A stretch of 64,000 bases of DNA, from assembly GCA_965248255.1 (NCBI GenBank), contig CBDFIW010000003.1, forward strand, positions 993,239 through 1,057,238, given 5' to 3'. Of this stretch, positions 29,784 through 54,764 are shown piece after piece. Source of the DNA: Bryobacterales bacterium. Lineage in GTDB: Bacteria; Acidobacteriota; Terriglobia; Bryobacterales; UBA6623. The first letter of the stretch is position 1. Each line of letters opens with the position of its first letter. A program made the position numbers and the translations under genes. The notes beneath the pieces were generated by a model, which searched no databases, was not told where the DNA came from, and saw nothing but the letters and a program-made list of their open reading frames with translations.

Positions 29784-29960
29784 TTCGCTGTTGCAGCTCT
29801 CGTAGGCCGCTGGACGTGAGTTAGAACGCTCGTCTCCGGCGTGCGAGTTCACCGGGGAAGCGGTGCCGTGACAACCTAGGTAACGCCCCTCCGTCCTAGT
29901 TGAGTGCCCCGGTTGAGGTTACCACAAAGGCACCCGCGAAGCGCAGGATTCGAAGAGCCC

Positions 29961-31548
29961 TGTCAAGGCCCAATGAAATGTCCCCTTCGGTAGCCCAGTA
30001 GAAGTGTCCCCTTGGTGATAGGAGAGAATCGTCATCGTCGGGGCTGTGGAACTGTGGGAATCGCGCAGCGATTTCCAAGGGGCGGTGGGAAGGGTGGAAA
30101 ACCATCCACGGTTCCTCGAGCCCGGCACGGCTGCCGCCACAAGGTTTTCCACGCTTTCCATCCGACCCGGCATTTCCACAGCCCTCTTATGAATTCGCAG
30201 CTCGTGTTTTCCGCAGCACAGCTCGCCGCCAGGGGTGATTCGCCGCCGGCTTGCGTCCGGCCACCACGTTCCCCTGCGGTGCCGGCTTCGTCCGCAGCCG
30301 TGGCGTCGGCGTGGCGATCACTTCGTGCTCGATCTCGTGCCCCTCAAACCTCACCTGCAAGCTCTCATCGCGCCCCTGTTGGACCGTCACCCGTGCACCC
30401 GCCCCCACGCCCTGATTGCGTTTCGGCTTCAACTGCAAACAACGATTCTCGAAACGCACCACCTGGTCGTTGCTCACCACCCGTTCGTATTCGAAGCAGA
30501 ACACGCCTCGCAGCTCGGTGCCGCGGGGTAGCGCCTGGTGAAAGTCCGCTCCCGCCGCCGGCTCGCAGCAGAAGCGCTCGTTGTGCTCGGCTAAGTACTC
30601 CTCGCCGAGGTAACGGTTCGCCGCCTCGTAATCAACGATGCCCCGCAGCCGCATCTTCTTGATCAGGCGGTCCTGGTGCGTGCCGTGATGGCGTTCGACA
30701 CGTCCCTTGGCTTGCGGCGACGATGCGGCAATGATGCCAATGCCAAGCTTCGCGCACATGCGCCCGAACTGCGTCTCGGGCTTGATGCCTTCCAGTGCTT
30801 ACCGCGACGTCGGCTGGCGCTGGTAGACGTTTTTCCAGTCGCAGTACAACGCCTTGGGAACGCCGTGTTGGCGCACCCAGGCTTGGAGCAGATCGGCCGC
30901 GGCCCAGGTCGTTTCCTGGCCCGAGAAGCGGCACAGTGCAAGACCGGTCGCGTCATCGACAAAGTTCATCAAACAGGCTTTCGGGCCGCGTCCTTCCAGC
31001 CAGTGGTGGTGCGAACCGTCGAGTTGAATCAGCTCGCCGAAGTGCGCTTTGCGTTGCCGCCGGCTGCGATGCGGTGGGCGCTTGCGACTCCGGCTCCACA
31101 GGCCCGCCGCGAGCATCCAGCGCCGCAGCGTTTCGCGCGGCACTTCCAGGCCCTGATCGGCTGCCAGATGTTCCGACGCCAGCGTCGGCCCGAAGCGCTC
31201 GTGCCCCTCGCCCGCATAGTTTGCGTGCACCAACTCGAGAACCTGCTCGCGGCGCTTGTCATCGGCTCGGTTCGAAGCGCGGCCGACGTTACCGTGCACC
31301 AAAGCCTTGACCCCGCCTGCTCGGTAACGCTTGTTGAGCCGCTTCGCTTGGCGGTAGCTGACCTCCAGCAGTGCGGTGGCTTCGGTCAACTTCAGTTCCC
31401 CTCGTTTCACTCGGCTCAGCACTTCGCCGCGCCTCAACTCCTTGGCACTCATCCATGTCCTTCCCAATCTTTCACCTCCTCGCAGAGGTCCAGATTAGGG
31501 GACATTTCTATTGGGCGCTCAAGGGGACATTATCATTGGGCTTCAACA
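29961..31548 (-). mobile_element. ISNCY/IS1202-like insertion sequence, copy B (inverted relative to A and C), 1588 bp
   Basis: It has the same termini as copy A: TGTCAAGGCCCAAT at 29961 and ...GGGCTTCAACA ending at 31548. The doubled 19-bp motifs lie at 31498-31516 and 31523-31541. It is near-identical to copy A. Confidence 0.85.
30187..31467 (-). pseudogene. ISNCY-family transposase with premature stop
   Basis: The GAA (Glu) codon of copy A (...TSREALEG) is TAA here (plus strand TTA 30799-30801). This splits the gene into ORFs 30799..31467 and 30187..30759. Confidence 0.85.
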
Positions 31549-32054
31549 CAATTCAATACCGGACCCAATCGATTCCTCTGCGGATGTTGAAGCGTTTGGA
31601 GCCAGGAAAAGCTCTCGATGTCGGGATGGGCCAGGGCCGTAACGCGATCTACCTTGCGCAACAAGGTTGGGACGTGACCGGCTTTGATCCAGCCGTCTTC
31701 GCGCTACAGAAGGCTGACCAGAGGGCCTCCGAGCTGGGCGTCAAGGTGAACATCGTTGTTGCAGGCGAAGAAGACTTCGATTGGGGCGAGGAGCAGTGGG
31801 ACCTGATTCTCTTTAGCTACGCGGACGTAAATCAAAACGTGGAGCGAGCACGCCGCTCGCTTCGGTCCGGCGGCGTCGTAGTCGTCGAGGGTTTCCACGG
31901 GGCACGCGACGACAACAATGTATTCTTCGACGACAACGAACTCATTGAGCTTTTCCCCGATTTCCGCATCTTGCAGTACGAAGATGTGGAGGATGTGGCC
32001 GACTTCGGCTTAAAGCGCCTGAGGGTAGTCCGGATGCTCGCGCAGAAGCCGTAG
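31549..32054 (+). pseudogene. C-terminal part of a lipoprotein class I SAM-dependent methyltransferase (N-terminal part at 52898..53268, minus strand)
   Basis: It starts QFNTGPNRFL... directly at the IS end. The SAM motif LDVGMGQGRNAIYLAQQGWDVTGFD lies in the -1 frame, which implies an extra 1-nt lesion near 31575-31579. Confidence 0.7.
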
Positions 32055-32078
32055 GCCGTGCAATTTGGCACGGGCCTA
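32050..32078 (+). terminator. stem-loop overlapping the stop codon (no clear T-tract)
   Basis: GTAGGCCGTGC-AATTTG-GCACGGGCCTAC forms an 11-bp stem with one bulge. Confidence 0.3.
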
Positions 32079-32512
32079 CGCACAGTCGCGAGACTGGACT
32101 TCTGCGGCAACGACTCCTCGCAGCAAGCGATCTCGAGCGTTCCCGGCTCGCTTCCGGGATGGGGGGTGATCTCAATGGGTCGATGCAACACCTTTCCTGG
32201 AAGGAAGGGTGAAGTGTAAGCCTAAGAAATCAAAAGGGTAACGATGAGGACACCGCGCTTCCTGCTAGATCCTGTTGAAGTACAAGAGGTTACGCGGTTG
32301 CGGTTGGGGGCTTCGGATGATGGGTAAGCCACTAGTCCCTCTCGGCGTTCGGACACTCCAGCTAAAGGATTTGACGCGGGTGTTGCGTTGACCGGTTGAG
32401 CCGGCAGGGATTGTCGGAAGTGAAGCTTTACGGTGGGTCATATGCCGTTGCAGCAAGCCCAGCCCTACACTTTGCCCGGAACACCCATGACCGCCTACCG
32501 AACGCGGACGCT

Positions 32513-33988
32513 TCAACCTGTGCGGGCCGACTCTTGACCACGACCCGAGCGGAGTGGCAACTCAAGTCTGGCGATGCAGCCCGTCGTATCTTTGCGGTTC
32601 TCCAGCGTCAGCGCCCCACCGTGGTTCTCCGCGATCTTGCGGGAAAGGACCAGGCCGATGCCTGTTCCATTGGGCTTAGTGGTGAAAAATGGAACGAACA
32701 GATTCGCATCACTCGATAGCTCCGGTCCTTCGTCAAGCACGTGAATCCGGGCCGTCTTTCCATTCCGGCTCCAACCGATCTGAACGCTGCCGCCCGTCTG
32801 GGCCTCAGCCTCCGCCCCGTTCTGAACGAGGTTGATAAGCAGCTGCTCCAGTTGGGCTGAGTCGGCGTCAACTGTGAGGTCCGGTCCAGATTCGACGTGA
32901 ACGCCGAAGGCCTGCTTGATCTTCGCGACCCGTTCAACGCACTCACGAAGCTTCACGGCTTCAAAGTTCGGTGGCGGAAGCTTCGCAAGCCGCGCATACG
33001 CGCTCGTAAAGCGGCCCAGCGCCTCGGCACGTGACCCGATCGCCCCAAGACCTTGCTCCATGTCCTGCTGCCAATCCGGGTCAGACGTCGGCCGACGCAG
33101 CATCGATCGAAGACTGCCCGTAATCGACTGGATCGGCGCCAGCGAGTTGTTGAGTTCGTGGCTGAGGACGCGGACCAACCGCTGCCAAGCCTGTAACTCT
33201 TCTTCTCGAAGCTCCAGTGTTAGGTCGGCAAGCACCAAAAGCCGATGCGGTACACCCTGCTCGTGGAACTTCGTGCAAGTGATTCCCCAGCGCCCGGATC
33301 CGCCGGCGAACGACTTCTGCAGAGTCCGCGGTGCGCTCTTGTCAAGGCATTCCACCAGGTCAAGTTCACCGGCGGTGCGGCCCAACAGGCGCTCTTCGGG
33401 CGCTCCTAGGAGCTTAGCCCCCGCCCGGTTGACAAGACGCAGCCGGTCTTGGTTGTCGAAAGTGAAGACCGCGACATCAATCTCCTGCATGACTTTTCGG
33501 AGCAGGTGTGTCGCTTCGACGGCGCTGAGGCGTTGCTCGCGCAACATCTGCCCCATCAGGTTGACTTCGTCCATCACTTCGCCCAGTGCGTCTTCCCTGG
33601 CAACACGGGCGCGAAGCGAATAGTCACCTTCGCGCAGGGCTGCCAGCAAGTTGGCGAGCGTTCGTAAAGGAAACACAACTCGCTGCCGAACCGCAAAAGA
33701 AAACCCAAGCCAGGAAACCACGATGAGAATCAGAAACGTCCATTGAGCCTTGGGAGTGTAATCTCCGGTGAACAGGAAAACCATCGAGGCGACCACCGCC
33801 GGCAGGCCTGCCAGAAGGGAATACGCAAGCACGCGCCGTTCGTGTCGCGGCGGCTGCTTCGGGTCGTTGCGATGGAACAGCACGGATTCAGGTTCTCGCT
33901 CTAGAGGCCGTATTTTTGGAGCCGCCGGTACATGGCGCTGCGGCTGAGGCCCAGATCCTTCGCCGCACCGGTGACGCTGCCATTGCAT
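32513..33988 (-). CDS. NtrY-like sensor histidine kinase (TM-HAMP-PAS-HisKA-HATPase_c)
   Basis: LANLLAALREGDYSLR (HAMP), H-box SHELNNSLAPIQS, and NLVQNGAEA..DEGPEL..GTGIGLVLS. The annotated ORF overlaps the upstream regulator by 88 nt, so a later start (GTG near 33886) is likely. Confidence 0.8.
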   Translation of the reverse strand: MQWQRHRCGEGSGPQPQRHVPAAPKIRPLEREPESVLFHRNDPKQPPRHERRVLAYSLLAGLPAVVASMVFLFTGDYTPKAQWTFLILIVVSWLGFSFAVRQRVVFPLRTLANLLAALREGDYSLRARVAREDALGEVMDEVNLMGQMLREQRLSAVEATHLLRKVMQEIDVAVFTFDNQDRLRLVNRAGAKLLGAPEERLLGRTAGELDLVECLDKSAPRTLQKSFAGGSGRWGITCTKFHEQGVPHRLLVLADLTLELREEELQAWQRLVRVLSHELNNSLAPIQSITGSLRSMLRRPTSDPDWQQDMEQGLGAIGSRAEALGRFTSAYARLAKLPPPNFEAVKLRECVERVAKIKQAFGVHVESGPDLTVDADSAQLEQLLINLVQNGAEAEAQTGGSVQIGWSRNGKTARIHVLDEGPELSSDANLFVPFFTTKPNGTGIGLVLSRKIAENHGGALTLENRKDTTGCIARLELPLRSGRGQESARTG

Positions 33989-35250
33989 CTCTCGAGCGTC
34001 TTCTTGATGAGATAGCGCTCCACTTCTTCAAGGCTCATGTCCTCCAGCCGGGGTGCGCCGGCGGCAGGTGCGGCGAGGCCCAGGTCCGTCTCGGTGACCC
34101 CCTCGCCCTTGGCCATCAGCACACTCCGCTGGACTACGTGATTCAGTTCGCGCACATTCCCCGGCCATGGGTGGCGAAGAAGCGAATCCATCGCCGTGGC
34201 TTCGAACCCTTGCAGCCGCTTGCCATAGCGCTTGCCGGCTTCTTCAAGAAAGTGCGCGGCGAGCATGGGTATGTCCTCCGCACGCTCGCGCAACGGCGGC
34301 AGATGAATCTCTACCGTGTTCAGGCGGAACAACAGGTCATCTCGAAACCGCCCTTGGTCAACCGTACAAGGCAGGTCCGCATTGGTCGCTGACAGCACCC
34401 GCGCATCGACTTTGCGGGTCTTCGATGAACCGACACGTTCAACCTCGCCTGTCTCGAGAACACGCAACAGCCGAGCCTGCTGAGCGGGGGTGATGTTCGC
34501 GATCTCATCGAGAAACAGTGTCCCGCCGTGCGCAAGCTCAAACCGCCCGATACGGTCCGCGGCGGCCCCGGTGAACGCGCCTTTCGTATGTCCGAAAATC
34601 TCGCTTTCAAAAACGCCCTCGGCCAAGCCACCGATATTGACCGAAATCATCGCGTTCTTCGCTCGCGGCGAGATCTGATGCAGCGTCTGCGCCACGATTT
34701 CCTTCCCCGTTCCATGCTCGCCGGTAATGAGAACGTTGGCATCCGAAGGGCCGACCCGCGCGATCATCTCCAATACGGGTTTCATCGCCGCCGACTCTGC
34801 AATGAGCGTCGGGAGACCGTCGTTGCGCAGGATTTCGTTCTCGACCTGCAGGCGGCGCTCATTGCGAAGCGCCCGGGCCAGTTCGGTCTGTGCGCGGACG
34901 ATGCTAACGAGCCGGGTGTTGTCCCACGGTTTTTGGACGAAGTCGCGTGCGCCCCTCCTCATCGCTTCCACCGCGAGTTCGACGCTTCCCCAGGCGGTCA
35001 TCACGACCACTGGCAGTGTGGAGTCGATCGCCCGGAGCCTTGACAACAGGTCGAGCCCTTCGTGTCCCGATGTAGTGTCGCGTGTGTAGTTCAGATCTAT
35101 GAGGACGACATCGAACTCGTCCTTCGCAACGGAGCGCAGAACTTGCGCGGGAGATATTGCGGATTTCGTCTCATAGCCTTCCCCTTTGAGGAGAAGGCGC
35201 AGGGCGGTGAGTACGTCCTGTTGATCGTCGGCAATAAGGACTTTCGACAT
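33901..35250 (-). CDS. sigma-54-dependent response regulator (NtrC/NtrX family: REC + AAA+ + Fis HTH)
   Basis: [17 protein letters not shown]..., [14 protein letters not shown], the ESELFGH-like motif SEIFGH, and a C-terminal HTH ([21 protein letters not shown]). Confidence 0.9.
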
Positions 35251-35399
35251 GGTGGCGCGGCTACATGCTGAGCCTATCGCGCGGCGGCCCGGAAAACAAT
35301 GACTGGCGACCCTGTACTAAGGAGGCATTGTTGATGCCTGCGCCGTCGGGCAACCACACCTCGCAAACGGGCGAGAGATTGGTACTGCCGGCCATGGGC

Positions 35400-35620
35400 T
35401 AATCGTGCCGAAGTGCAACCAAGGGATCGACCTGCGTGGCCCGGTGGGCGGGAATGTGGCAGGCGAGCATGGCCAACCCAATGATCGCTAGTCCGGCGAC
35501 GGCAAAGGTGATAGGGTCGGTTGGTGTGACCCCATAAAGCTGATGGGAGATAAGCCTCGTCAATGCTATCGACAAGGCAACACCGACGCCGATTCCGAGA
35601 AGAGTTAGCCTATTGACTCC
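35400..35620 (-). pseudogene. last transmembrane segment / C-terminus of an ADOP-type (MacB/FtsX-like) permease
   Basis: ...LTRLISHQLYGVTPTDPITFAVAGLAIIGLAMLACHIPAHRATQVDPLVALRHD* is the canonical FtsX-permease C-terminus. It is separated from the N-terminal part by the IS630 remnant. Confidence 0.75.
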
Positions 35621-36345
35621 CGCATAATATAGAGTCAGTCAAAACAAAGAGAAGACTGTTTCCAGAAGGCCGTGATCAAACGCGGTTTGCGGTACATGCG
35701 GCGGAGTGCCTTGCGGGCCCGCTCGTTCAGCTCGCCGTAGTCTTTCGGACAGACGTTCGGCAACTCGTGCTGCTTCCAGTAAGCCCAGATGTATTCCACC
35801 GGATTCAACTCCGGCGCATAGGGTGGCAAGTACTCGGTTGCGATGTGGCCTTCGGAGAGTTCGATGAACTCTTGCACCAGGCGGCTACGGTGCGCCGGCA
35901 GCCGATCCCAGACGATCAGCAGCGGGCGATCGATATGACGTACCAACGCCTTGAGAAAGTCGATCACTTGCTCTTTGCCGATCGCACCGGGATAGAGCCG
36001 GAAGTAGAAGTTACGCAGCGTCAGCCCCGCCGAGACGGAAAGCTTCTCCCAGTTGAAGTTAAACTGCAGCACCGGTGTTTGGCCACGTGGCGCCCAGGTG
36101 CGGCAGCGATGCGGCTTCTGACTCAATCCGCTTTCGTCGATGAAGACGAGCGTACGGCCTTCGTTTTGGGCTTTTTTTTAATGCGCTTCCAGGTCTTGCG
36201 CTTCCAGGTGCGGATCCGCTCTTCGTTGCGCTCGCGCGCCTTTCCGGCCGGGCGTTGCGGGCTCCAGTCGAGCGCTCGCAGGATCTTCCAGGCGTGGCCT
36301 GCGTGGTATGCGACCCCGAACTCGTCTCCGATCATGCTTCACAAC
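35621..36345 (-). mobile_element. IS630-family remnant, 5'-truncated (boundaries approximate)
   Basis: The transposase lacks its N-terminal HTH region of about 100 aa. I found no matching inverted repeat at the upstream side. The 3' end lies about 15-20 nt beyond the stop (35635). Confidence 0.7.
35635..36335 (-). CDS. IS630-family transposase fragment with -1 frameshift site at an A8 run
   Basis: orfA is ...WKRKTWKRIKKK. The -1 frame reads KKAQNEGRTLVFIDESGLSQKPHRCRTWAPRGQTP...DRLPAHRS...YAPELNPVEYIW (DDE). The plus-strand T8 run lies at 36172-36179. Confidence 0.8.
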
Positions 36346-37896
36346 GGAATCCTGTTCACCCACTCGGCTCAGGTTCCTCGACCCCCCCCCCATCAGAGGC
36401 ATCCCTCCAGCAATCAACGCGGATTTGATCCCGGGCAGGGTCCTCAGCCGGCTCAAAGCGGACTCAGCGAATAACCTTCGCTCATCCGGACTCTGATATT
36501 TGGAGCCGGGAAGCATCGCCGCCATGGTCAATAGCTTTTCGTGGTTGAAACCAAACTCGGTGTGGCTCCCACCGCCCAACATGCTGAGGATCAGGCCCGC
36601 ACCGCCTAACAGGCCCGTCGTGAGCGCTAATTGCGACACCAGCAGCGCGTGGCGGAAACGCCGTCCTCCCTTACCGGTCGAAGCGCGCGTGCTCCCCTCC
36701 TTGAGGGTGTGGTTCACGTCCACCCGTGAGGCCTGCCACGCCGGCGCCAAGCCGAACAGGATCCCGCTGAGACAAGAGACGAGAAACATGAAGGTGAGCG
36801 CCTCCCCATCGAGCCGAAGCCCCCCGATGGCCTGCGTCCACTGCGCCGGCATGTAGCCCATCAGCCCCGCGACACCCAGGTACGCCACTCCGAGTCCGAG
36901 CACCCCTCCAAGTAGGGCGACAAGAATGCCCTCAATAAGGAGTTGGCGCACGATCTTGAATCGGCCGGCCCCCAGCGCCGTCCGCAGCGCCAACTCCTTG
37001 CGCCTTTCCAGCGCCCGCGCCAATTGGATATGCGAAACATTCGCGCACGCGATCAAGAACACGAAACCGACCGGCAACATGATGAGCAAGCCGTTCACAT
37101 TGAACCGCTGCGCGATCACGTCTCTCGGTGCCAGCATGTAAGAGCCCCAATCGCCGTTCGTTTCCGGGTACTCCTGCGCCAGCCGCTCCGCCAGCGTCGA
37201 GAACTCCGCCTGCGCCTCCTCAATCGTCCTGCCCGGCTTCAGCCGCGTCCAGACGCGCAAATCCCGCACGCCGCGGGACGAGGCGCTCATTTCCTCCTCG
37301 GTGAACACCATGGGAACCCACGCTTCCATTTCCCGCCAGAACCCGGTCGGCATCACGCCGACGACTGTGTACAGCTCGCTGTTCAGACGAACGCGCGAAC
37401 CGAGGACCTCCGGGTCGCGGCCCAGCTGCCGCGTCCAGAAGCCCTCGCTGAAAATCGCGACCTTGTCGTTGCCCCGCACGCCCTCGTCGGCGCGAAAAAA
37501 GCGTCCTTCGAGTGCTGGTACGCCAAGTATGGGGAAAAGATTCGTCGTGACTCGTTGTGCCCGCACCGGAAGCGCCTCGCTACCCCGATCCATGATGAAC
37601 TGCGAGTAGCGGAACGTCCCCATCGCTTCGAAGACGGTATTCTGCTCCCGGAAATCACGAAGGTCCGGCGCCGAGATGTTCCTCCGCCGGCCGTCTTTCT
37701 TGTTTTCAGCCTGGACGATTACCAGCGTATCGCGGTCCTTGTACTGGAAGCTGCCGACGAGCGACTGCCGCATCAGGCTGAAAATCGCGGTGTTGGCCCC
37801 GATCCCCAAGGCCAACGTCACTGCTGCCACCGCCGTTGTGAGCGGATTCTTGAACAGCATCCGCAGGCTGCACCTAAGGTCCCGGAGAAACCTCAC
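36346..37896 (-). pseudogene. N-terminal about 515 aa of an ADOP-family duplicated permease (MacB_PCD + FtsX), truncated
   Basis: Starts at a GTG (MRFLRDLRCSLRMLFKNPLTTAVAAVTLALGIGANTAIFS), followed by a periplasmic domain and 3 TM segments. The ORF then reads into IS630 sequence. About 270 aa (the second periplasmic domain and two TM segments) are missing. Confidence 0.8.
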
Positions 37897-38252
37897 TCAC
37901 GCACCTCCGATTTGGGACTGGTGCCGGGAAAGCAGGGGCGGCACTGGCTCTCGGAAAGAGACGTTCCCGGTTGGTGTAGACGTCGCTGACGGAAAAAAGT
38001 TCGCTCATACTCGAAAAAGATCAGGCACTCTGGTTCGCACCTTGTGCTCGCACAAGCAGACACGCAGCGCAAGATGCCCGGCGACTTGAACGCGATTGCC
38101 ACTCCCCTATTAAACCGGGAGCCATCGACGGACGGCAGAGCTCGCAGAATGATAGGTCCTGACGGACGGCGATCCGATGATCCAGCACGTCGGACCGTGA
38201 CGAGGGCGCTTCCGCGGACCGGAGTTCTCGGAAGTACTGCCGGAGCAAGCAT
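37893..38252 (-). CDS. divergent PadR-like transcriptional regulator (tentative)
   Basis: It sits directly upstream of and overlapping the ADOP start, as is typical for PadR-ADOP pairs. PIILRALPSVDGSRFNRGVAIAFKSPGIL...RCEPECLI loosely fits the PadR wHTH pattern. Confidence 0.3.
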   Translation of the reverse strand: MLAPAVLPRTPVRGSALVTVRRAGSSDRRPSGPIILRALPSVDGSRFNRGVAIAFKSPGILRCVSACASTRCEPECLIFFEYERTFFRQRRLHQPGTSLSESQCRPCFPGTSPKSEVRE

Positions 38253-39032
38253 GGTTGGCGGGAAGGCGATTATCGGCAGCTGCGAACGAGCGGTCCGTCG
38301 TGGCTTCAGCAGTTTCAGCCAGTTAACGTGCGAAACCAGGTTAGACTGCGGCCCACACCGCAACGTTCGGGTGAGGGATTACAGTGATGGAAGGATCCGA
38401 TTCGACCAGCCTGAATTCCGCAAGACGTTCCTCAAACTCAGTCCGCGGCAGAGAGCCCGCCTGGCCCAGGGCCGCCCCGACGGACTCAAAGCTCATTCGG
38501 TATAGCCGCTTCAGATCCGTGGAGTCATACTCGATCCCTGAGTCAGCACTAACCTGGGGGGGGATTCTGCTCCAGCCTCTCGGAATAGATGAACGAGCTC
38601 CTTTCCAATCAGGGGATGCGGAAACACCGCTGCCCACATTGCAGGAATCTGTTCGTACGCGGGGTTTGGTGGATAACAACAGCTAAATGCGAGGTCCGTA
38701 CCGGACGAAAAGGTCCGCGAGATGGCCCTGGAGCACCAGGAAGCCCTGGGCCTCCCGCTCACAGAGCCCACGCGGGGCGGAATCCCGGTTTCGGGGGAAA
38801 AGAAAGCTTGGCCCAGGGACATCTGAACCGGCGGCTGTTCGGTGACATGCTGCGTCGGATCTGGGCGCTGCCTGCGCCCGGAGGGTAACGCGGCGAGCGC
38901 GGGGCAGCCGGAGCGGGGAGTTGCCGAGAGGCAAGGCCGGAGCGGTGTCGGTAGAGTGGCCGCTGGCGTTGCCGGAACGCCTTGACCGGACCCGATCTCC
39001 TACAGGACCTAGGTATCGAGTAAATAAGGCAG

Positions 39033-39452: not shown

Positions 39453-39463
39453 TTTCACCTTAA

Positions 39464-39908: not shown

Positions 39909-39937
39909 ATGAACCAGGGAACGGTAAGGAGGTTCGA

Positions 39938-43626: not shown

Positions 43627-43925
43627 CCCTGTGCCTGCGGCTCACGCCGGTCAGTAAAAGATGTTCGGCGTTTTGACCGAAATCAGTGGTGAGACTAGCA
43701 GGAGTGGGTTTCCCAGCGGGTTGTCGGCCTGTGGCCCTCTGAGCAATGTAGAGACTCGAGACGCGCCGCGCCGTTGTGCTCAGATTCGCGAGGGCAGCTG
43801 TTCCGTTGCAAGTGTCCGGACAGCAGGTGAATCGCCTACTTCAGGAGTGACGGAGGTTGAAGACCGGAACGTAGGGCCCAGCGCCGTCCGGACGAAAGCC
43901 GTAGTTTCGGTTTCCTGACAGGTAC

Positions 43926-44498: not shown

Positions 44499-44716
44499 TT
44501 GGTTTGCTCTAGAGTTAATGATTCAGTATCCAACTCTTCCCATGTACACTCCTTGGATTCGATTGTCAAGCTCAGGCTGTACTAGTACTTCTTGGGGGAA
44601 GTCGCCCGCCTGCTCCCTGGGGTTCTTCGCGCCGCCCAAACTTCGTTCAGTCTCGTGAGAATGGGAGGGTTCATGGGTCGTGTTAGTTTAATTCAACGAC
44701 ACTCGCTGACATTCCG

Positions 44717-46576
44717 TTGCCGTCGGCTTCCGCGGAACAGGAGAGGCCTCCAATGAGAACACAATACCGCTTGACGTATCCAATCGTTTGCCGAAGCTTC
44801 GCTGCGGTTGTGCTTTGTGTCTGCCGGCTCACGGGGCAAGCCGAGTCAGAGGTGGCCTTCCCCCCTTCCCGCCCGCCAAGTAATCACATCCAGGTTGAGA
44901 ATAGGGTCTCAATCCCGATGCGGGACGGCGCGATTCTGAAAGCTGACATCTACCGTCCCGCTGGGGAAGGCAAATATCCCGTGCTGGTCTCGCGCACACC
45001 CTACGGCACCGAGCGTGCAGGCAGACACCGGGCAGGTGTCTTCTTTGCGCGGCGGGGGTACGTGTTCGTGTTCCAGGACACACGCGGGCGGCATGAGTCC
45101 GACGGCGAGTGGTCGCCTTACCGACTCGAAATGCTCGACGGGCACGACGCGATTGAATGGGCCGCCAGTCAGCGCTGGTCGAACGGCAAAGTAGGCATGC
45201 AAGGTGCGTCCTACCTGGGGCATGTGCAGTGGCAAGCGGCCCGTACCGTTCCACCTCATCTGGTGACGATCTTTCCGGTTGTGGCAATGACCAGCTTCTA
45301 TCATCATGGCCTGACGACGAACGGAGCGTTTCGTCTGGCGATGCGGTTCGGCTGGGGCGCCGTCCGCAACGATGATCGACTCATGCAGAACACGGAGGCT
45401 CACTTCATGGAAGATGGGCCGGAGAGTGTCAGTTATGAGAAAGTGCTTTGGCATCTACCGCTGATCGACATGCCGCGTCTGGCCGGTCGCAACCCTACGT
45501 TCTGGAGGGACTGGGTGACCAGGTCCGACTACACCGATTACTGGAAGGTTCTCAATGCCGAAGAGGATTTCCACAAGATTCCTATCCCTGCGCATACCTT
45601 CGGAGGGTGGTTTGATGTCAACCTGATGGGAACGTTGAATGGATACGCCAAGCTGAGCAAACTTGGGAAGACGATCATCGCGCGAGAGAAGAGCCAGATG
45701 ATTGTCGGTCCGTGGGGCCACGGACCCGCACGCCGAGTCGGGCATCTTGACTTCGGTGATCACGCCAATGTGGATACTCGTTCCGTCGAGTTGCGCTGGT
45801 TTGACTACTGGTTGAAGGGCATCGATACCGGCATCCAGCAAGAACCCCCCGTCAAACTCTTCGTGATGGGGAAGAATGTCTGGAGGCAAGAGAACGAGTA
45901 TCCACTGGCCCGAACCGAGTACAGAAAACTGTATTTCCACAGTGGGGGTAAGGCCAACAGCTACCGTGGGGATGGAAGTCTTTCGTGGGACCCCCCTGCG
46001 GCCGATGCCGCGCCCGACCGTTATCGATACGACCCCAAGCACCCGGTCCCGAGCCTGGGTGGCAACAACTGCTGCGGGGCCGATACACCGATAGGGCCCG
46101 TGGATCAGCGTCCCATCGAAGGGCGCAATGACATCCTGGTTTATACATCGGATTTTTTGGAACAGGAGGTCGAGGTGACGGGTCCCGTCAAAGTCGTGCT
46201 GTATGCCGCGTCCGATGCGAAGGATACCGATTTTGTGGCGAAACTGGTCGATGTCTATCCGGACGGCCGTGCGGTCAACGTCGCCGAGGGTATTCTACGG
46301 GCTCGTCATCGCGAGGGCCTCGACCGGCCGAAGCTGATGGAGCCGGGTCGAATCTATGAGATGCCGATCAATCTCATTGGCACGAGCAACGCTTTTCTCC
46401 CGGGTCACCGCATCCGCGTGGATATCACGAGCAGCCATTTCCCACAGTTCAACCGAAACCTGAACACGGGCGAAACCATTGGGCTTGGCTCGAAGCCGAT
46501 CGTGGCCGACCAGACGATTCATCATTCCAAGCTGCGTCCGTCGCATATCGCCCTGCCGGTCATTCCACACGAGTAA
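44717..46576 (+). CDS. CocE/NonD-family hydrolase (peptidase S15, X-Pro dipeptidyl-peptidase-like)
   Basis: IPMRDGAILKADIYRP.GEGKYPVLVSRTPYG, GASYLG and a C-terminal PepX_C-like domain. The ATG at 44753 (MRTQYRL, after GGAGAGG) is a likely start. Confidence 0.85.
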   Translation: MPSASAEQERPPMRTQYRLTYPIVCRSFAAVVLCVCRLTGQAESEVAFPPSRPPSNHIQVENRVSIPMRDGAILKADIYRPAGEGKYPVLVSRTPYGTERAGRHRAGVFFARRGYVFVFQDTRGRHESDGEWSPYRLEMLDGHDAIEWAASQRWSNGKVGMQGASYLGHVQWQAARTVPPHLVTIFPVVAMTSFYHHGLTTNGAFRLAMRFGWGAVRNDDRLMQNTEAHFMEDGPESVSYEKVLWHLPLIDMPRLAGRNPTFWRDWVTRSDYTDYWKVLNAEEDFHKIPIPAHTFGGWFDVNLMGTLNGYAKLSKLGKTIIAREKSQMIVGPWGHGPARRVGHLDFGDHANVDTRSVELRWFDYWLKGIDTGIQQEPPVKLFVMGKNVWRQENEYPLARTEYRKLYFHSGGKANSYRGDGSLSWDPPAADAAPDRYRYDPKHPVPSLGGNNCCGADTPIGPVDQRPIEGRNDILVYTSDFLEQEVEVTGPVKVVLYAASDAKDTDFVAKLVDVYPDGRAVNVAEGILRARHREGLDRPKLMEPGRIYEMPINLIGTSNAFLPGHRIRVDITSSHFPQFNRNLNTGETIGLGSKPIVADQTIHHSKLRPSHIALPVIPHE

Positions 46577-46816
46577 GTGCAACCCGCCCAACGAAGCCCA
46601 TATGGCTGTGGTCGTCGTTCGAGCATGCCTAGAAACAGTGAAGGCGTGCAGCAGGTCCGCTACGATGACTTGTGGAGACCGTGGGCATAAGACTCGGCAT
46701 GTCGACCGCGCCACTCCCCCGCGGACTCCTGGCACAACTGCCCCAGTACTCCCCAGGCTGCTAGTTTATTCCACAGAGCCTGACCTATTTCGACCAGCGA
46801 CCCTGCGAGGTTCCCT

Positions 46817-48160
46817 GTGATGCCGGCAACAAAATCCGAACTTCTCTCCCTAGATCTCGAGCACCTGATCCACCCTCTTCACCGCAGGACGACTCACGAA
46901 GCCGGCCACGTGTGGGTGAAGGGCGACGGCGCAGTTCTGGTGGACGCCGATGGGAAGGAGTACATCGACGGCCTGTCTGGGCTATGGAACGTCGTGGTGG
47001 GCCACGGCCGTACGGAACTGGCTGAGGCCGCCGCCGAGCAGATGGAGGCCCTGGCCTACTGCTCAGGATATGCCGGGAGCTCGAATCCTCGAGCTATCGA
47101 GCTGGCCGAAAGACTCGCCGGCTTGACCTACTCTTCGATCAACCGCTTTTTCTTCGCGTCTGGCGGCGGGGAAGCCAGTGAGAGCAGCTTCAAGGTGGCT
47201 CGGTCGTACTGGAAGCTGAAGGGGTATCCAGGCAAGACGAAGGTCATCTCACGCCAGTGGGGCTACCACGGGGTCACACTGGCCGCGATGAGCGCCACAG
47301 GCATCTCCAGCTATTGGCCGCTGTTTGAGCCCCGCGTGCCCGGCTTCAGCCACATTCCCTCGCCGTATCCCTATCGCTACGAGGCGCCCGAGGGGATGAG
47401 CCAGGGTGTCGCCGCAGCGAACGAACTGGAACAGGCGATCTTGCGGGAAGGTCCCGAGACAGTGGCCATGTTCCTGGCCGAACCGGTGCAGGGAGGGGGC
47501 GGCGTCATCGTTCCCCAGGAGGACTACTTCCCTCGCATCCGAGAGATCTGTGATCAGTACGACGTGTTGTTGGTGGCCGACGAAGTGATCACCGGTTTTG
47601 GGCGGACGGGCCGGTGGTTCGCGCTGGAGCACTGGGGAGTCGAGCCGGACATGGTGCAGTTTGCCAAAGCCATTACCTCGGGCTACTTTCCCCTGGGCGG
47701 TGTCGGGGTCAACGATCAGATTGCCGAAGCCCTCGATCAGAGCGACTCACCTTGGATGCATGCCTACACCTACAGCGCCCACCCAGTCGGCTGTGCGGTG
47801 GCTCTCCGTAACCTGCGCATTCTCGAAGAAGAAGACTTACCCAATCAGGCCGCGGAGAAAGGGGCTTACCTGCTCGACGCGTTGAGATCATCACTAGCCG
47901 ATCATCCTCACGTCGGGGACATTCGAGGGAAGGGCCTGATGTGCGCGGTCGAGTTCGTCAAAGACAAGTCCACCAAGGCCGAGTTCGATCCGGCAGACCG
48001 GGTTGGCGCCAAGCTCGACAGTGAAGCTCAGAACAGGGGATTGTTCACCCGACTGCGCGGCGACGTGTTCTGCCTGGCTCCGCCGTTCGTCACGACCCGA
48101 GATCAACTGGACCGAATCGTCCAGATCTTGAGGGAGTCGGTCAGATCCGTACTGGGATAA
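46817..48160 (+). CDS. class III (omega-type) PLP-dependent aminotransferase
   Basis: GLWNVVVGHGR, LVADEVITGFGRTG and FAKAITSGYFPLGG (PLP lysine). The protein is 447 aa. Confidence 0.85.
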   Translation: MMPATKSELLSLDLEHLIHPLHRRTTHEAGHVWVKGDGAVLVDADGKEYIDGLSGLWNVVVGHGRTELAEAAAEQMEALAYCSGYAGSSNPRAIELAERLAGLTYSSINRFFFASGGGEASESSFKVARSYWKLKGYPGKTKVISRQWGYHGVTLAAMSATGISSYWPLFEPRVPGFSHIPSPYPYRYEAPEGMSQGVAAANELEQAILREGPETVAMFLAEPVQGGGGVIVPQEDYFPRIREICDQYDVLLVADEVITGFGRTGRWFALEHWGVEPDMVQFAKAITSGYFPLGGVGVNDQIAEALDQSDSPWMHAYTYSAHPVGCAVALRNLRILEEEDLPNQAAEKGAYLLDALRSSLADHPHVGDIRGKGLMCAVEFVKDKSTKAEFDPADRVGAKLDSEAQNRGLFTRLRGDVFCLAPPFVTTRDQLDRIVQILRESVRSVLG

Positions 48161-48457
48161 CGGAGAGTCGGCATCAGCGTAGACGCCGGTGTTCCGGGTA
48201 GCTCGCCGCGGATTCTGTCTTGCCCCTATCCTTGACGGCGGGCTCTCGCGGCTACTACCAATACCATGCGGTCCCGGGCAACACGGATCGGTTGGCGGTG
48301 CTACGGCTTCGGCTCCGACGGCTGTGGCGACGCGTCCTGTTTCGTCGCAGTCAAGAAGGGTCCAAGTCCTGGAAGCAGCTGAAGCGGCTTCTGGCCGCTG
48401 GATTTCACCGATTGGACCCACCACGCAACAGATTGACAGCCCTGATATCGCGGGCCC

Positions 48458-48964
48458 ATGCTATGCCCTATGCGATGGCCGACCCGGCGGCAAATCCTCT
48501 CCTCGATAGGCGCCCTCGGTGTCGGGGCAAGCGTCGAGGACTCCCTGTACTCCGCAACGGCCGCTGCGCCCGCCTCCGCCGCGACCATGCGCATCACGCG
48601 CTACGAGGTGATCCCCGTGCGCGTGCCTATGCACGAACGCATCCGTGAACCGTTCGGCGCGGCTTACCGCAAGCAGGGCATCTTTCGCGACTACTACGAC
48701 TCGACGCTCGTCAAGCTCTACACCGACGAAGGGCTCGTGGGCGTCGGCGATGCCCTGCTAAGCGTTGAGGGCTCACTCGGCAGTGTTGCCCTCGCCGAGT
48801 CGATTCTCAAGCGCTTGGTGGGCCGTTCGCCGTGGGAGTTTCTGCTCGAAGACTGCCTCGGCGGCATCTTGATGGCAATCTACGACCTAGTGGGCCAAGC
48901 TGCCGGGCTACCCGTCTCACGCCTCTTCTCCGCCAACCCCAGAAAGAGCATCATCCAGGCCTAC
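48458..48964 (+). pseudogene. Tat-signal leader plus N-terminal capping domain of an enolase-superfamily enzyme; truncated paralog of 49235..50359
   Basis: TRRQILSSIGALGVGA...MRITRYEVIPVRVP...LYTDEGLVGVGD...AIYDLVGQAAGLPVSRLF aligns with the N-terminus of the next gene. Similarity stops at ...IIQAY (about 48964). Confidence 0.7.
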
Positions 48965-48977
48965 AATAAAGTTCTCT

Positions 48978-49192
48978 ATGTCAGAGTCCGTAATCCATGG
49001 CTCGCCTGCCATCATGGGGGCACGCCAGTGTTCGCCGGCACCAGGGTTCCGGTCCAGACTCTCATCGACTACCTCGAAACCGGTGAAACGATTGACGGCT
49101 TTCTGGCAGATTTCCCTACGGTGGTCCGTGATCAGCTTCTGGAAGTGCCCGAGGCCGCAAAGAGGGCTCTCGTAGCTGAGAAATCAGGGTGA
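48978..49192 (+). pseudogene. DUF433-family (antitoxin-like) gene with a frameshift in a G5 run
   Basis: It starts MSESVIHGSPAIMG in one frame and continues GGTPVFAGTRVPVQTLIDYLETGETIDGFLADFPTV in the frame that is fused to the upstream fragment. The G5 run lies at 49016-49020, and six G would restore one ORF. The local sequence is AT-richer. Confidence 0.6.
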
Positions 49193-49224
49193 AGATCCTT
49201 CTCGACGAGTGCCCGTCGTCGTGA
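49189..49224 (+). pseudogene. 11-codon remnant of a DUF5615 (PIN-like) gene
   Basis: The GTG overlaps the DUF433 stop (GGTGA). It encodes VKILLDECPSS* and matches the usual MKxLLDENLP start of DUF5615 partners of DUF433. Confidence 0.45.
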
Positions 49225-49234
49225 TAGAGTCCAG

Positions 49235-50359
49235 TTGTCCATGTCAATTCGATCTCGGCGAGACCTGATCCGATCGCTTGGTCCGTTGAATGTCGCTGGC
49301 TCGACGGTCGCGGCCGCCGGCGCCGCCAAGATGCGGATCACGCGCTACGAGGTTATCCCCACCGTCGTTCCAATGGACGTCCGCGTTCGCGACGCCTGGC
49401 AGCGAAGCTGGTTCCTGCAGAACCGTTATCAGCAGCACCACGAGCCGGTCGCCGTCAAGCTGCACACCGACGAGGGGCTGGTGGGCATCGCCGACTCGAT
49501 GATGAGTCCGGCCGAGACCGACCGCGTCCTGCGAGGTATGGTCGGTCAATCCCCCTTGGACTACCTGCTGGACGACAGCATTCGCGGCATCCTCGTCGCG
49601 ATCTACGACCTGATCGGTCAGGCCAGTGGTCTTCCCGTCTCGCGGTTGTTCGCCCCGTCACCCAAGCAACGTATCGTGCAGACCTATTGGAGCCAGTGCT
49701 TCCATCCCGACTTGATGGCATCCGAGGCCAGGCGCGCCGAGAGCCTTGGCTACAAGGTCCACAAGGTCAAAGCGCGTCCGTGGGAGGACCCGATCGCACA
49801 AGCCGAGGCCATCTGTGCCGCCGTCTCGAAGGACTTTCGCGTGTGGGTGGACGCCAACGCCTGGTGGGGCTCGGTCGGCCGGACGCTCCACATCACCAAA
49901 CGCTTGGCAAAACTGCACAACTACTTCGCTATCGAGTCGCCCATTCGCCGCGAACGCATCGGGGGCTACCGGCAACTGAAGGGCAAGGTCGCTCTACAGG
50001 TCACCGAGCACATGCCTGCCGATCCTATGCCCTTTGTCCGAGAGGGCCTAGTGGACGCGTTCGTCGTCGGCGGCCCGATGGGAAAGACGCTCGTCCAGCG
50101 CGCCTTGATGGCCGAAGTAACCCGTATACCCCTCTGGGTCGAGCACAGCACGCGCTGCGGCATCAACCAGGTCTTCCAAGCCCAGCAAGCCGCAGCCTTC
50201 CCCGGAATTGAATACTGCATCAGCGTCACGCATATGCTCGAAGATGACCTGGTTACCGAGCCCTTCACGATGAAGGACGGTTTCTACGAAGTCCCGACCA
50301 AGCCGGGGCTGGGCGTTTCCCTCGACGAGGCGGCTGTGGACAAGTATCGGGTCGCGTAG
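49235..50359 (+). CDS. enolase-superfamily (MR/MLE) enzyme with Tat-type signal peptide
   Basis: The SRRDLIRSLGPLNVAGSTVAAAGAA leader precedes MRITRYEVIPTVVP. MR_MLE N- and C-domains are present (KVKARPWED, WVDANAWW, ESPI). The likely start is the ATG at 49241. Confidence 0.8.
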   Translation: MSMSIRSRRDLIRSLGPLNVAGSTVAAAGAAKMRITRYEVIPTVVPMDVRVRDAWQRSWFLQNRYQQHHEPVAVKLHTDEGLVGIADSMMSPAETDRVLRGMVGQSPLDYLLDDSIRGILVAIYDLIGQASGLPVSRLFAPSPKQRIVQTYWSQCFHPDLMASEARRAESLGYKVHKVKARPWEDPIAQAEAICAAVSKDFRVWVDANAWWGSVGRTLHITKRLAKLHNYFAIESPIRRERIGGYRQLKGKVALQVTEHMPADPMPFVREGLVDAFVVGGPMGKTLVQRALMAEVTRIPLWVEHSTRCGINQVFQAQQAAAFPGIEYCISVTHMLEDDLVTEPFTMKDGFYEVPTKPGLGVSLDEAAVDKYRVA

Positions 50360-50410
50360 ACCAAGGACCGAGCTCTCGAGCAGCCGCGCCACCTCTGGCA
50401 GCGCGGGCAC

Positions 50411-51268
50411 ATGTGGGCGCACCTCAGCGACCAGCCGAGTGACTTCCGCGTGCCGGTCCTGCTCTCCTCGGGCGCACCGGCGACCGTCCCAATCATCAAC
50501 CCGGACCCGGGCGATGCCATTGACTACCTGAACCCCTTTCGCAACTCGGTGGGCTACTGGATCCCGCGAAGCAAGGCCGTGATCGCCAACACCGCGCATC
50601 CGGTGATCAAAGCGATGGGTCTGAAGCTCGGCGACGAAGTGCCTGGGCAATGGGGCGGCGAAGTGGACATCCTCTACGAGCCGCACGCCTGGGACATACT
50701 CATCCGTTCCGACCGAGCGGCGCCCGCCGGACGCGAATTCGGCATCGACGCCTTCGACCCCACGCCGATTCACCGCGTCGGCCTCGCGATCCACAAGAAC
50801 CTGCGCCTCGGCATGTTGACCGGCGAAAACTTCCCGAACATCCTGGGCGACAAGCGCAACGAACGCTACCGCGAGATTTACCGGCGAACCCTTCTGCACT
50901 TTCTGAGCAGGGCCAGAGAGCTTAGCCCTGAGAAGGATATGGCTCCATCTGCATCAGCAGGGGCTTCACAAATCTCCTGGGAAGACCCGGTGCGACTCGA
51001 GGCCTTGCGCTACGAGTTACCGGCGTTCATCGACTTTGATGATCGAGGTTGGCACCGAGGACCAGCTTCGTTTGCTCACTATGTCGTGGAGGGATCGAAG
51101 AACGCAGAGGACTGGTTCCCGCTGGCGGACCGCCGACACGGACCGTGGCGCGGAGTGCAGACCGATTTCTTCGAACCCGTGCAAGTCCGCTATGTTCGCT
51201 GGCGGGGCACGTTCTCGAACGGTGAGCCATTTCGCGTGCGAAACCCCCAAGTATTCCGCGCGGAGTAG
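50411..51268 (+). CDS. hypothetical protein with C-terminal F5/8 type C (discoidin)-like domain
   Basis: The C-terminus ...HYVVEGSKNAEDWFPLADRR...VQVRYVRWRGTFSNGEPFRV fits the galactose-binding-like fold pattern. The start is uncertain. Confidence 0.5.
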   Translation: MWAHLSDQPSDFRVPVLLSSGAPATVPIINPDPGDAIDYLNPFRNSVGYWIPRSKAVIANTAHPVIKAMGLKLGDEVPGQWGGEVDILYEPHAWDILIRSDRAAPAGREFGIDAFDPTPIHRVGLAIHKNLRLGMLTGENFPNILGDKRNERYREIYRRTLLHFLSRARELSPEKDMAPSASAGASQISWEDPVRLEALRYELPAFIDFDDRGWHRGPASFAHYVVEGSKNAEDWFPLADRRHGPWRGVQTDFFEPVQVRYVRWRGTFSNGEPFRVRNPQVFRAE

Positions 51269-51332
51269 ACTTGGACTGGACGTCGATACTTACGTAGTAG
51301 CGCTACGCACCTTGCCGAGCCGCCTGGGCTCA

Positions 51333-52897
51333 TGTTGAAAGGCAATGATAATGTCCCCATGAGCAGGCAATAGAAATGTCCCCTAATCTGGACCTCCACG
51401 AGGAGGTGAAAGATTGGGAAGGACATGGATGAGCGACAAGGAGCTGAGGCGTAGTGAGGTGCTAAGCCGGGTCCGGCGGGGGGAGTGGAAGCTGAACGAA
51501 GCGGCGGCGCGGCTTGAGATCAGCTACCGCCAAGCCAAGCGCCTGTGGAGCCGTTATCGCAAGGGCGGGACTAAGGCGCTGGTGCACGGCAACGTCGGGC
51601 GCCGCTCGAACCGCGCTAAGCCGGTGGAGTTTCGCCGGCGTGTGTTGGCCTTGGTGCGGGAACACTATGGGGGCGACCGCAGCAGCGCTGCGGGCCGACG
51701 CTAGCCGCGGAGCAGCTGCAACAGGATCACGGCCTGGAGGTGTCGGTGCGCACGCTGCGGCGCTGGATGCTCGCTGCAGGCCTGTGGAGCCGGAGTCGCA
51801 AGCGCCCACCGCATCGCAGCCGGCGGCAACGCAAAGCGCACTTCGGCGAGCTGATTCAACTCGACGGTTCGCACCACCACTGGCTGGAAGGACGCGGCCC
51901 GAAAGCCTGTCTGATGAACTTTGTCGATGACGCGACCGGTCTTGCACTGTGCCGCTTCTCGGGCCAGGAAACGACCTGGGCCGCGGCCGATCTGCTCCAA
52001 GCCTGGGTGCGCCAACACGGCGTTCCCAAGGCGTTGTACTGCGACTGGAAAAACGTCTACCAGCGCCAGCCGACGTCGCGGGAAGCACTGGAAGGCATCA
52101 AGCCCGAGACGCAGTTCGGGCGCATGTGCGCGAAGCTTGGCATTGGCATCATTGCCGCATCGTCGCCGCAAGCCAAGGGACGTGTCGAACGCCATCACGG
52201 CACGCACCAGGACCGCCTGATCAAGAAGATGCGGCTGCGGGGCATCGTTGATTACGAGGCGGCGAACCGTTACCTCGGCGAGGAGTACTTAGCCGAGCAC
52301 AACGAGCGCTTCTGCTGCGAGCCGGCGGCGGGAGCGGACTTTCACCAGGCGCTACCCCGCGGCACCGAGCTGCGAGGCGTGTTCTGCTTCGAGTACGAAC
52401 GGGTGGTGAGCAACGACCAGGTGGTGCGTTTCGAGAATCGTTGTTTGCAGTTGAAGCCGAAACGCAATCAGGGCGTGGGGGCGGGTGCACGGGTGACGGT
52501 CCAACAGGGGCGCGATGAGAGCTTGCAGGTGAGGTTTGAGGGGCACGAGATCGAGCACGAAGTGATCGCCACGCCGACGCCACGGCTGCGGACGAAGCCG
52601 GCACCGCAGGGGAACGTGGTGGCCAGACGCAAGCCGGCGGCGAACCACCCCTGGCGGCGAGCTGTGCTGCGGAAAACACGAGCTGCGAATTCATAAGAGG
52701 GCTGTGGAAATGCCGGGTCGGATGGAAAGCGTGGAAAACCTTGTGGCGGCAGCCGTGCCGGGCTCGCGGATCCGTGAATGGTTTTCCACCCTTCCCACCG
52801 CTCCTTGGAAATCGCTACGCGATTCCCACAGTTCCACAGCCCCGACGATGACGATTCTCTCCTGCCACCAAGGGGACATTTCTATTGCCTCTTGACA
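51333..52897 (+). mobile_element. ISNCY/IS1202-like insertion sequence, copy C (mosaic variant), 1565 bp
   Basis: Its termini are TGTTGAAAGGCAAT... and ...ATTGCCTCTTGACA, with GGCAAT where A and B have GCCCAAT. The right end carries only one 19-bp motif. About 51782-52752 is near-identical to copies A and B, and the flanking parts are diverged. Confidence 0.85.
51414..52696 (+). pseudogene. ISNCY-family transposase, frameshifted
   Basis: The N-terminal 96 codons (diverged from copy A) end at TAG 51702-51704. The rest continues in another frame (GPTLAAEQLQQDHGLEVSVRTLRRWMLAAGLWS...). Confidence 0.85.
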
Positions 52898-53268
52898 GGT
52901 TCGGTATTGAATTGTCGGTTCGAGGTCAGTACTATGTTCCACTTGAGGTCTTTGGATCCCCGCACCCAACGTTCAAACGTCGCTATGTGATCATCCGCCT
53001 CAGACTCGGATACTCCCTGGGTGACCAAACGATCTCGATACTGATTGATCATCATGGGCATAGGCCTGAGCTCCCCAGCGCGGGTGAGCTCTCTTATGAA
53101 CTCGCCGAACTCTTCAAAGTTCTTGGCGGCCTCCGGCGTCGGCAGTTCTTGGGACCGCGCTTGGACGGCCTCCGTTGCTGGCGGAGAATCACCGCTCGAC
53201 GAGCATGATGCAAGCGTCATCGCCAGCAAGGAAAGGAACAGGGTGACGCGCCGACCTATTTGCAGCAT
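52898..53268 (-). pseudogene. N-terminal part of the lipoprotein SAM-dependent methyltransferase whose C-terminal part is at 31549..32054
   Basis: MLQIGRRVTLFLSLLAMTLASCSSSG (lipobox LASC) ...ERWVRGSKDLKWNIVLTSNRQFNT ends at the IS right end. The listed ORF 52882..53550 reads into the IS and starts too early. Confidence 0.7.
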
Positions 53269-54646: not shown

Positions 54647-54764
54647 GTCGAGTCCCGCGGGGTCGTGAACGAGTAACCTGAGTCTGCGCTTCCTAACTGC
54701 TCCAGCTCCGAGTCACTTCCGACAAGTCCGGTTGTCGGAAGGGAGCCAGTTTGCCCGACTTGCA

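Follow-up and report, generated by a model that had tools for sequence, protein, structure and literature searches.

How did one gene come to lie in two pieces, 21 kb apart and in opposite orientation, each piece ending at a copy of the same insertion sequence (IS)? The question is raised by a 64,000-nucleotide (nt) stretch of contig CBDFIW010000003.1 of a Bryobacterales bacterium, referred to as the window, in which a predicted methyltransferase gene is divided between two IS copies, B and C. The original prediction, made from the window alone, ascribed the arrangement to a single inversion between two ordinary insertions. The present analysis supports one insertion of an IS1202-family element into the gene, and favors, with a probability of roughly 60%, a history in which three insertion sites then underwent at least two IS-mediated exchanges with one another. 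The coordinates, flank sequences and translations on which the original prediction was built were all correct on recheck.

One methyltransferase gene in two halves

The two pieces of the gene are as follows.

52898-53268, minus strand: N-terminal gene half, with the ATG start codon at 53268-53266 and the lipobox LASC
31549-32054, plus strand: C-terminal gene half, with a Rossmann S-adenosylmethionine (SAM)-binding domain and the stop codon at 32052-32054

Read from 53268 to 52898, the first piece translates MLQIGRRVTLFLSLLAMTLASC...WNIVLTSNRQFNT. The second, from 31549 onward in frame 0, reads QFNTGPNRFLCGC up to a stop codon, and the SAM motif LDVGMGQGRNAIYLA lies in the frame starting at 31551. 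The C-terminal half matched the Pfam families Methyltransf_25 (8.9e-13), Methyltransf_11 and TehB, and the glycine-rich motif I, DVGMGQGRN, was invariant in the homologue alignment. Joining 53268->52898 to 31566->32054 yielded a 286-amino-acid protein, matched over 98-100% of the joined sequence by SAM-methyltransferases of 276-285 amino acids. The joined gene gave more than 3,600 protein matches, mostly of 270-300 amino acids and with an identical two-part layout. These matches bear out the proposal that 53268->52898 and 31549->32054 are two halves of one gene, predicted to encode a lipoprotein SAM-methyltransferase. The layout and the DVGMGQGRN motif are those of class I SAM-methyltransferases (TehB-like/Methyltransf_25) with an N-terminal lipoprotein extension, but the gene in the window is split, frameshifted and non-functional.

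The gene was also found on four contigs of other metagenome genomes (L001-L004), at 81-93% nucleotide identity, and is uninterrupted in three of them (L001-L003). Positions 9652-10083 of these three align to window positions 53299-52898 and positions 10066-10575 to 31548-32056, the two alignments overlapping by 18 nt, which correspond to a 17-mer found outside both IS copies plus one chance-matching base. Comparison of the joined halves with an intact homologue, which the original prediction had proposed as a check, showed the rebuilt gene to be colinear with the L001 reading frame, with the 17-mer present once at the junction. The sole frame-breaking difference is a 1-nt gap. The additional lesion that had been placed near 31575-31579 is therefore real, and consists of one G missing between 31578 and 31579 (FLVRML; CTC GTG CGG changed to CTC TGC GG). 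The other gap relative to L001 is an in-frame 30-nt tandem duplication that belongs to L001 itself. With the gene split, one G lost and a codon changed in one copy of the duplication, it is predicted to be dead.

A fusion of the frameshifted half to an IS-borne start (the 199-amino-acid P0002), with the frameshift as an adaptive change, was considered and rejected, since the GC-rich IS leaves both frames open; a promoter directed outward was not found, and the sole promoter-like site reads into the IS.

No flanking synteny was detected between L001-L004 and the window, the gene alone being common to them. Homology to the 8.5-Mb genomes runs from about 30 nt before the start codon to just past the stop codon, with wholly unrelated flanks, and the identity of the gene to L001-L004 is 81% in the N-terminal half and 93% in the C-terminal half. 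From these comparisons the methyltransferase gene looks to be horizontally exchanged or to sit in scrambled contexts. In L004 (10335-10943) it is interrupted elsewhere by an insert of about 600 bp with a Y1 (IS200/IS605-type) transposase, which by its position and content is an independent predicted inactivation of the same gene.

Three copies of one insertion sequence

The window contains three copies of one IS, and copies B and C enclose a segment between their inward-facing left ends.

7422-9010, plus strand: IS copy A, with A-type ends; the sole copy in the window with an intact transposase (421/426 amino acids)
29961-31548, minus strand: IS copy B, with its right end at 29961 and its left end at 31548; A-type ends
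51333-52897, plus strand: IS copy C, a mosaic element with C-type ends
31549-51332: segment of 19,784 nt between the left ends of B and C

Each copy starts with TGT and finishes with ACA (TGTTGAA... and ...TTGACA), and subterminal motifs of the form AAT(GAT/AGA)AATGTCCCC are repeated in all three. A window-wide search found no further ends or fragments of the IS in the 64 kb.

Seven substitutions and one indel separate copies A and B, the 445 nt at the left end of B being identical to A. In B the transposase is truncated by a TAA codon at 30799-30801, which splits the open reading frame (ORF) into 30187-30759 and 30799-31467, and the right terminal repeat carries a 1-nt deletion. Copy C matches A and B at about 99.5% identity in a core of 990 nt, but its left 445 nt or so show only 62-74% identity to A/B and are more distant from A than either outgroup IS. 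Its right 155 nt or so have diverged as well, by about 10 substitutions (about 7%) and a 26-nt slip deletion, and near 51677 a 1-nt deletion breaks its transposase frame. AGGC is present in each of the three terminal repeat motifs of C (left outer, left inner and right outer), where A, B and the related element L085 read GCCC; another related element, L086, has ACCC at one end where those three read GCCC. Two variants of the ends and of the helix-turn-helix (HTH) region coexist in the window with a nearly identical catalytic core. Because AGGC is found in all three motifs of C and B is A-type at both ends, the two ends of C are, judged by these motifs, a matching pair belonging together, and likewise the two ends of B.

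The nonsense codon in B and the frameshift in C indicate that both copies are defective, so that they could move again only with transposase provided in trans. A promoter-like site on the minus strand at 31529-31556, a consensus match only, has its -35 element (TTGAAT) in the duplicated flank and its -10 element (GATAAT) within the left end of B, and points towards the B transposase gene.

Family and target duplication length

The transposase of copy A scored 383 bits against NCBIfam NF033594 (ISNCY family; cut-off 250 bits), a model that B and C matched too. It has an N-terminal HTH (Pfam HTH_28/HTH_32) and the motifs QLDGS ... VDDATG ... YCDW ... VERHHGTHQ, which make up a DDE core that has an additional DD and carries Q at E+7. 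A D..DD..D..E+7Q transposase and TGT ends are the signature of the IS1202 family, within which the ISTde1 subgroup makes target duplications of 15-17 bp and has been reported from Acidobacteria and other soil phyla (bioRxiv 10.1101/2022.12.17.520857). Since the TGT ends, the transposase signature and the duplication length all fit, the element is a new member of the IS1202 family that resembles the ISTde1 subgroup, formerly placed under ISNCY. It has in common with that subgroup a length of about 1.6 kb, TGT repeats, a single transposase with an N-terminal HTH and D..DD..D..E (Q at E+7), and 15-17 bp duplications, but differs in having two end/HTH variants around a nearly identical catalytic core.

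The duplication length was examined in related copies from elsewhere. L085, a 90%-identical element in another genome, has TGT ends and a perfect 17-bp duplication, and nine copies of a 78%-identical element (L086-L094), also with TGT ends, have duplications of 16, 16, 15, 17, 17, 16, 17, 16 and 17 bp. All 10 related copies are thus flanked by 15-17 bp duplications.

The flanks of copies B and C

Four flanks bear on the history of B and C.

31549-31565, plus strand: copy 1 of the 17-bp duplication, abutting the left end of B; GAA changed to GGA relative to the intact homologue
52898-52914, plus strand: copy 2 of the 17-bp duplication, abutting the right end of C; 17/17 identical to the intact homologue L001
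29944-29960, minus strand: flank of the right end of B, reading GGGCTCTTCGAATCCTG on that strand; the window lacks its duplicated partner
51316-51332, plus strand: flank of the left end of C, CGAGCCGCCTGGGCTCA; 64 nt downstream of a gene for a 285-amino-acid protein

The flank outside the left end of B, read as the reverse complement of 31549-31565, is GGTCCGGTATTGAATTG, and that outside the right end of C is GGTTCGGTATTGAATTG, a 16/17 match. Allowing up to three mismatches, the 17-mer occurs only at these two sites in the 64 kb (0.05 occurrences expected), and a random pair of flanks would match over 17 nt with at most one mismatch with P ~1.5e-5. The cross-match between B and C that had been noted originally is borne out, and the sequence is single copy in the intact homologue. 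Given the 15-17 bp made by all 10 related copies, the 17-mer is a genuine target duplication.

The second cross-match in the original prediction fared otherwise. Positions 29954-29960 read AGAGCCC and the reverse complement of 51326-51332 reads TGAGCCC, so the 6/7 match itself is real (P ~0.002 in random flank pairs, 0.005 if any repeat length is allowed), but a 7-bp duplication is not expected, because the lineage makes 15-17 bp in 10 of 10 copies and in the family literature. The flank pair of B-right and C-left does not match at 15-17 nt. No 17-bp partner of the C left flank was found in the window, the last 7 nt alone resembling the first 7 of the B right flank. Copy A likewise has no 15-17 bp duplication, only CGGT being common to its two flanks. 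Short matches such as the 7-mer and CGGT are nominally unlikely by chance (P ~0.002-0.007); nevertheless, judged by the duplication length of the lineage, neither is a duplication made by this IS.

Comparison with related genomes

Five contigs (L098-L102) encode relatives, 98% identical, of the 403-amino-acid protein whose gene lies left of B. Between 29960 and 19061 the contigs are about 97% identical to the window at the nucleotide level, and the match ends exactly at 29960. They have no IS at the site, where they read ...GTAAGTAAAACCCGCT joined directly to GGGCTCTTCGAATCCTG..., and beyond 29960 they carry genes for a cobalamin adenosyltransferase, a cytochrome c and other proteins, for which no counterpart was found in the window, even at the protein level. 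It follows that 29960 was originally joined to a sequence other than the 51332 side. The synteny check that the original prediction had proposed thus went against it. Flipping 31549-51332 does rebuild an IS-interrupted gene with a 17-bp duplication, as predicted, but it does not restore the ancestral left junction, since the relatives differ at 29960, and at least one more IS-mediated event is required. A resemblance between the IS-free site of the relatives (CCCGCTGGGCTCT) and the C left flank (CCGCCTGGGCTCA) did not extend further and was judged to be due to chance.

At the site of copy A, two other contigs (L107 and L108) match 4351-7421, ending exactly at the outer (left) edge of A, and continue with metK and ahcY, two genes that the window lacks. 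In one relative, the A site and the 29960 site are 228 kb apart on a single contig of 4.56 Mb. These data are consistent with a large IS-bounded inversion in the lineage of the window. At the other end of the window, L104 and L105 match only from 64000 down to about 54712; this border of colinearity, at about 54712-54728, lies at a hairpin and has no IS. The stretch from 29961 to about 54728, comprising B, the segment, C, the N-terminal gene half and an amidohydrolase gene, has no counterpart beside either flank in the relatives.

Other searches added little on the junctions. The 285-amino-acid protein beside the C left flank clusters with no other protein at 90% identity or higher; three loci encode it at 64-70% identity, with only the pair of an enolase-superfamily gene and the 285-amino-acid gene conserved, which leaves the junction uninformed. 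Species-representative genomes yielded no relative of the 403-amino-acid protein, and the best queA match, only about 51% identical, gave no usable relative either; JGI metagenomes contained no match for the 403-amino-acid protein. A contig found via the response regulator (L103) has only the regulator-kinase pair in common with the window (84%).

Origin of the arrangement

Loss or redistribution of target duplications through recombination between IS copies is textbook behavior. The favored explanation follows this route. An IS1202-family element inserted once in the methyltransferase gene and duplicated 17 bp, as the flanks and the intact homologues indicate. The two junctions of this insertion would later have been separated and turned opposite by exchange between dispersed copies, which could take place because the copies have a common 990-bp core that is about 99.5% identical. 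In such an exchange each IS half would keep its own flank, so that four half-elements should be readable in the present sequence. The left half of B carries the C-terminal gene half, and the right half of C carries the N-terminal gene half. The right half of B would come from a different site, upstream of the 403-amino-acid gene, whose other side lies outside the window, and the left half of C from a third site, downstream of the 285-amino-acid gene. With three insertion sites (the gene, 29960 and 51332) permuted, at least two exchange events would be needed; in keeping with more than one event, neither partner 17-mers for the orphan flanks nor other IS ends were found in the window. Of the three minimal orders of events, two would include as a step an inversion of about 21 kb between inverted copies, around 31549-51332, as originally predicted, the third having a large inversion followed by a deletion instead; an inversion between B and C may thus be among the events.

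This explanation predicts the ends that should exist elsewhere in the genome. The partner of the right half of B would be a left end preceded by ...CCCGCTGGGCTCTTCGAATCCTG / ...AAACCCGCTGGGCTCTTCGAATCCTG, beside the cobalamin adenosyltransferase gene; that of the left half of C would be a right end followed by CGAGCCGCCTGGGCTCA; and that at the A site would be a right end followed by CAATCCGTTGACTCGGTCCGGTTGGG, beside metK. The family paper, too, ascribes copies without duplications to intra-replicon recombination (bioRxiv 10.1101/2022.12.17.520857). As in other cases of recombination between dispersed IS copies, inverted copies bound a segment, and a duplication is common to two copies and not to the two sides of one. 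The case differs from them in that only one of the two expected cross-matches is present, in that three sites are permuted, and in that the ends at the shared duplication are of different lineages.

Several observations weigh against this history. Homologous recombination never parts an IS end from its flank, and under it the inserting element must, from the end sequences, have been a hybrid, A-type at its left end and C-type at its right (AGGC, the 26-nt deletion and about 7% divergence). The matching ends of B and C today would then be a coincidence. A hybrid inserting element is nonetheless plausible, as both lineages have an identical core. No crossover point could be placed within the core, where single-base differences supporting A+B and B+C are interleaved when substitutions are polarized with two outgroup IS. 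The partner ends of the orphan flanks are unseen. Among the relatives searched, no genome was found with the segment in the opposite orientation or with IS-free segment ends, and GC skew across the segment showed no clean reversal and was uninformative.

The mismatch of ends at the duplication is what a second explanation accounts for best. Here the inversion would have been made by transposase acting on two elements at once, with the left end of B and the right end of C forming an inverted repeat-inverted repeat (IR-IR) junction similar to an IS30 dimer. B, with its A-type ends, and C, with its C-type ends, would once have stood in direct orientation, and their junction would have attacked the intact gene, located on the same molecule at a distance of about 20 kb; a single reaction would have inverted C together with the segment and made the 17-bp duplication, one copy beside each attacking end. 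The sole duplication in the window is indeed bounded by a left and a right end of different lineages while the present elements have matching ends, and no 15-17 bp duplication is expected, or found, between the B-right and C-left flanks. One insertion fewer is required than by the recombination route, and no hybrid element. There is precedent in IS30, which joins the ends of two, sometimes distant, copies into a junction that gives rise to inversions and deletions (PMC9333248), and the ends of the IS1202 family begin with TGT, as do those of IS3 and IS481 (bioRxiv 10.1101/2022.12.17.520857). The parallel with (IS30)2 dimers and IR-IR junctions, known also from IS21 and IS911, is that the left and right ends of two copies act on a target in one molecule, and for IS30 the dimer reaction also yields an inversion in which the target duplication is divided between those ends (PMC9333248). 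The element, however, belongs to another family, for which neither a circle nor an IR-IR junction is known, and nothing in the window sequence proves that a junction existed. Moreover, B and C would have to have been neighbors once, with the intervening DNA since lost; an earlier event would still be needed to bring the strain-specific block beside the 29960 flank; and the transposase would have to accept both types of end, a demand that the hybrid-element model makes likewise. On balance this transposase-made inversion is regarded as a tentative alternative, and exchange by recombination after a single insertion is preferred to it.

An assembly artefact, in which wrong flanks were joined across the 1.6-kb repeats and no inversion took place in the cell, is improbable. 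The window does come from a metagenome assembly, and many near-identical IS copies occur in the genome (clusters of 41 and 89 member sequences), but B and C differ strongly in their outer 445 and 155 nt, which leaves only the 990-nt core ambiguous, and the elements as assembled have matching ends where the alternative join would give two hybrids. The contig has a length of 2.59 Mb, and the naming of contigs from related samples suggests that these are long-read assemblies. An artefact would also leave unexplained the synteny breaks located exactly at IS ends (29960 and 7421).

Least probable of all is the single homologous inversion of the original prediction, between an insertion in the gene with a 17-bp duplication and one upstream of the 403-amino-acid gene with a 7-bp duplication: the copies are inverted and have a long, nearly identical common core, and the 6/7 match is rarer than chance for one pre-specified pair (P ~0.002), but the 10 related copies and the ISTde1 subgroup make 15-17 bp duplications, the IS-free relatives join 29960 to ...AAAACCCGCT / GGGCTCTTCG..., beyond which lie genes that the window does not contain, and the flip would make hybrids of both elements, the one rebuilt in the gene having an A-type left and a C-type right end, which a simple inversion between two ordinary insertions does not predict.

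Gene content of the segment and other features

The segment between B and C is now inverted relative to the N-terminal gene half. Its genes encode a histidine kinase and a sigma-54 regulator, MacB/FtsX fragments, a Na+/H+ exchanger, a CHRD protein, an S15 peptidase, an aminotransferase, enolase-superfamily proteins and the 285-amino-acid protein, and it also contains one IS3-family element and the remnants of two other IS. No tRNA gene was found at the island borders.

39938-41150: IS3-family element, with an OrfB-like ORF at 40320-41150 that has rve, rve_3 and HTH_21 domains
52898-54728: N-terminal gene half and a divergent amidohydrolase gene, the strain-specific end of the block

An IS630-like remnant lies at 35609-36334 and is 86% identical to an element beside the 4351 boundary in L107 and L108. 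A stretch of 175 nt at 38815-38989 is about 77% identical to the flanks of IS4-type (DDE_Tnp_1_4) transposase genes in relatives, and is probably a solo IS end. The ORF at 48458-49192 starts like the first of the tandem enolase-superfamily paralogues in two other contigs, L096 and L097 (residues 5-169, 70% identity), and then switches to a DUF433-like tail; from this alignment, the first paralogue appears to be truncated or fused in the window.

Outside the segment, a repeat of about 190 nt at 3185-3380 is 81% identical to an insert downstream of queA in the relatives (L098, 12527-12706), an insert that the window does not have at the corresponding position, 27226-27229; by this comparison it may be a small mobile repeat. 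A pair of identical direct repeats of 300 nt, 645 nt apart, occupies 17770-18714, and the alignment of the relatives skips 16920-19060, a stretch that is a window-specific insertion or duplication. To the right of copy A, 9136-11177 is GC-rich, with overlapping proline- and arginine-rich ORFs on both strands and two occurrences of GGPLRPPISPPSARCP; these ORFs had no family match, and the stretch may be non-coding or repeat DNA.

Implications

In conclusion, the split gene is a case of ordinary bacterial genome shuffling, but one for which more than one flip is needed. A duplication common to two IS copies proves that the two flanks were once joined, not that a single flip restores the ancestor. 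All three IS copies in the window lie at synteny breaks or orphaned junctions, which indicates a lineage heavily reshuffled by a recently expanded IS1202-family element, and such reshuffling has consequences for binning, for annotation that relies on synteny and for the assessment of metagenome assemblies. That a single duplication is flanked by two ends that do not match bears on how the little-studied IS1202 family moves. If the inversion was made at an IR-IR junction, one transposase-catalyzed step would have both broken the gene and inverted about 21 kb, A-type and C-type ends could be synapsed together, and elements of the IS1202 family would behave like copy-out-paste-in elements such as IS30.

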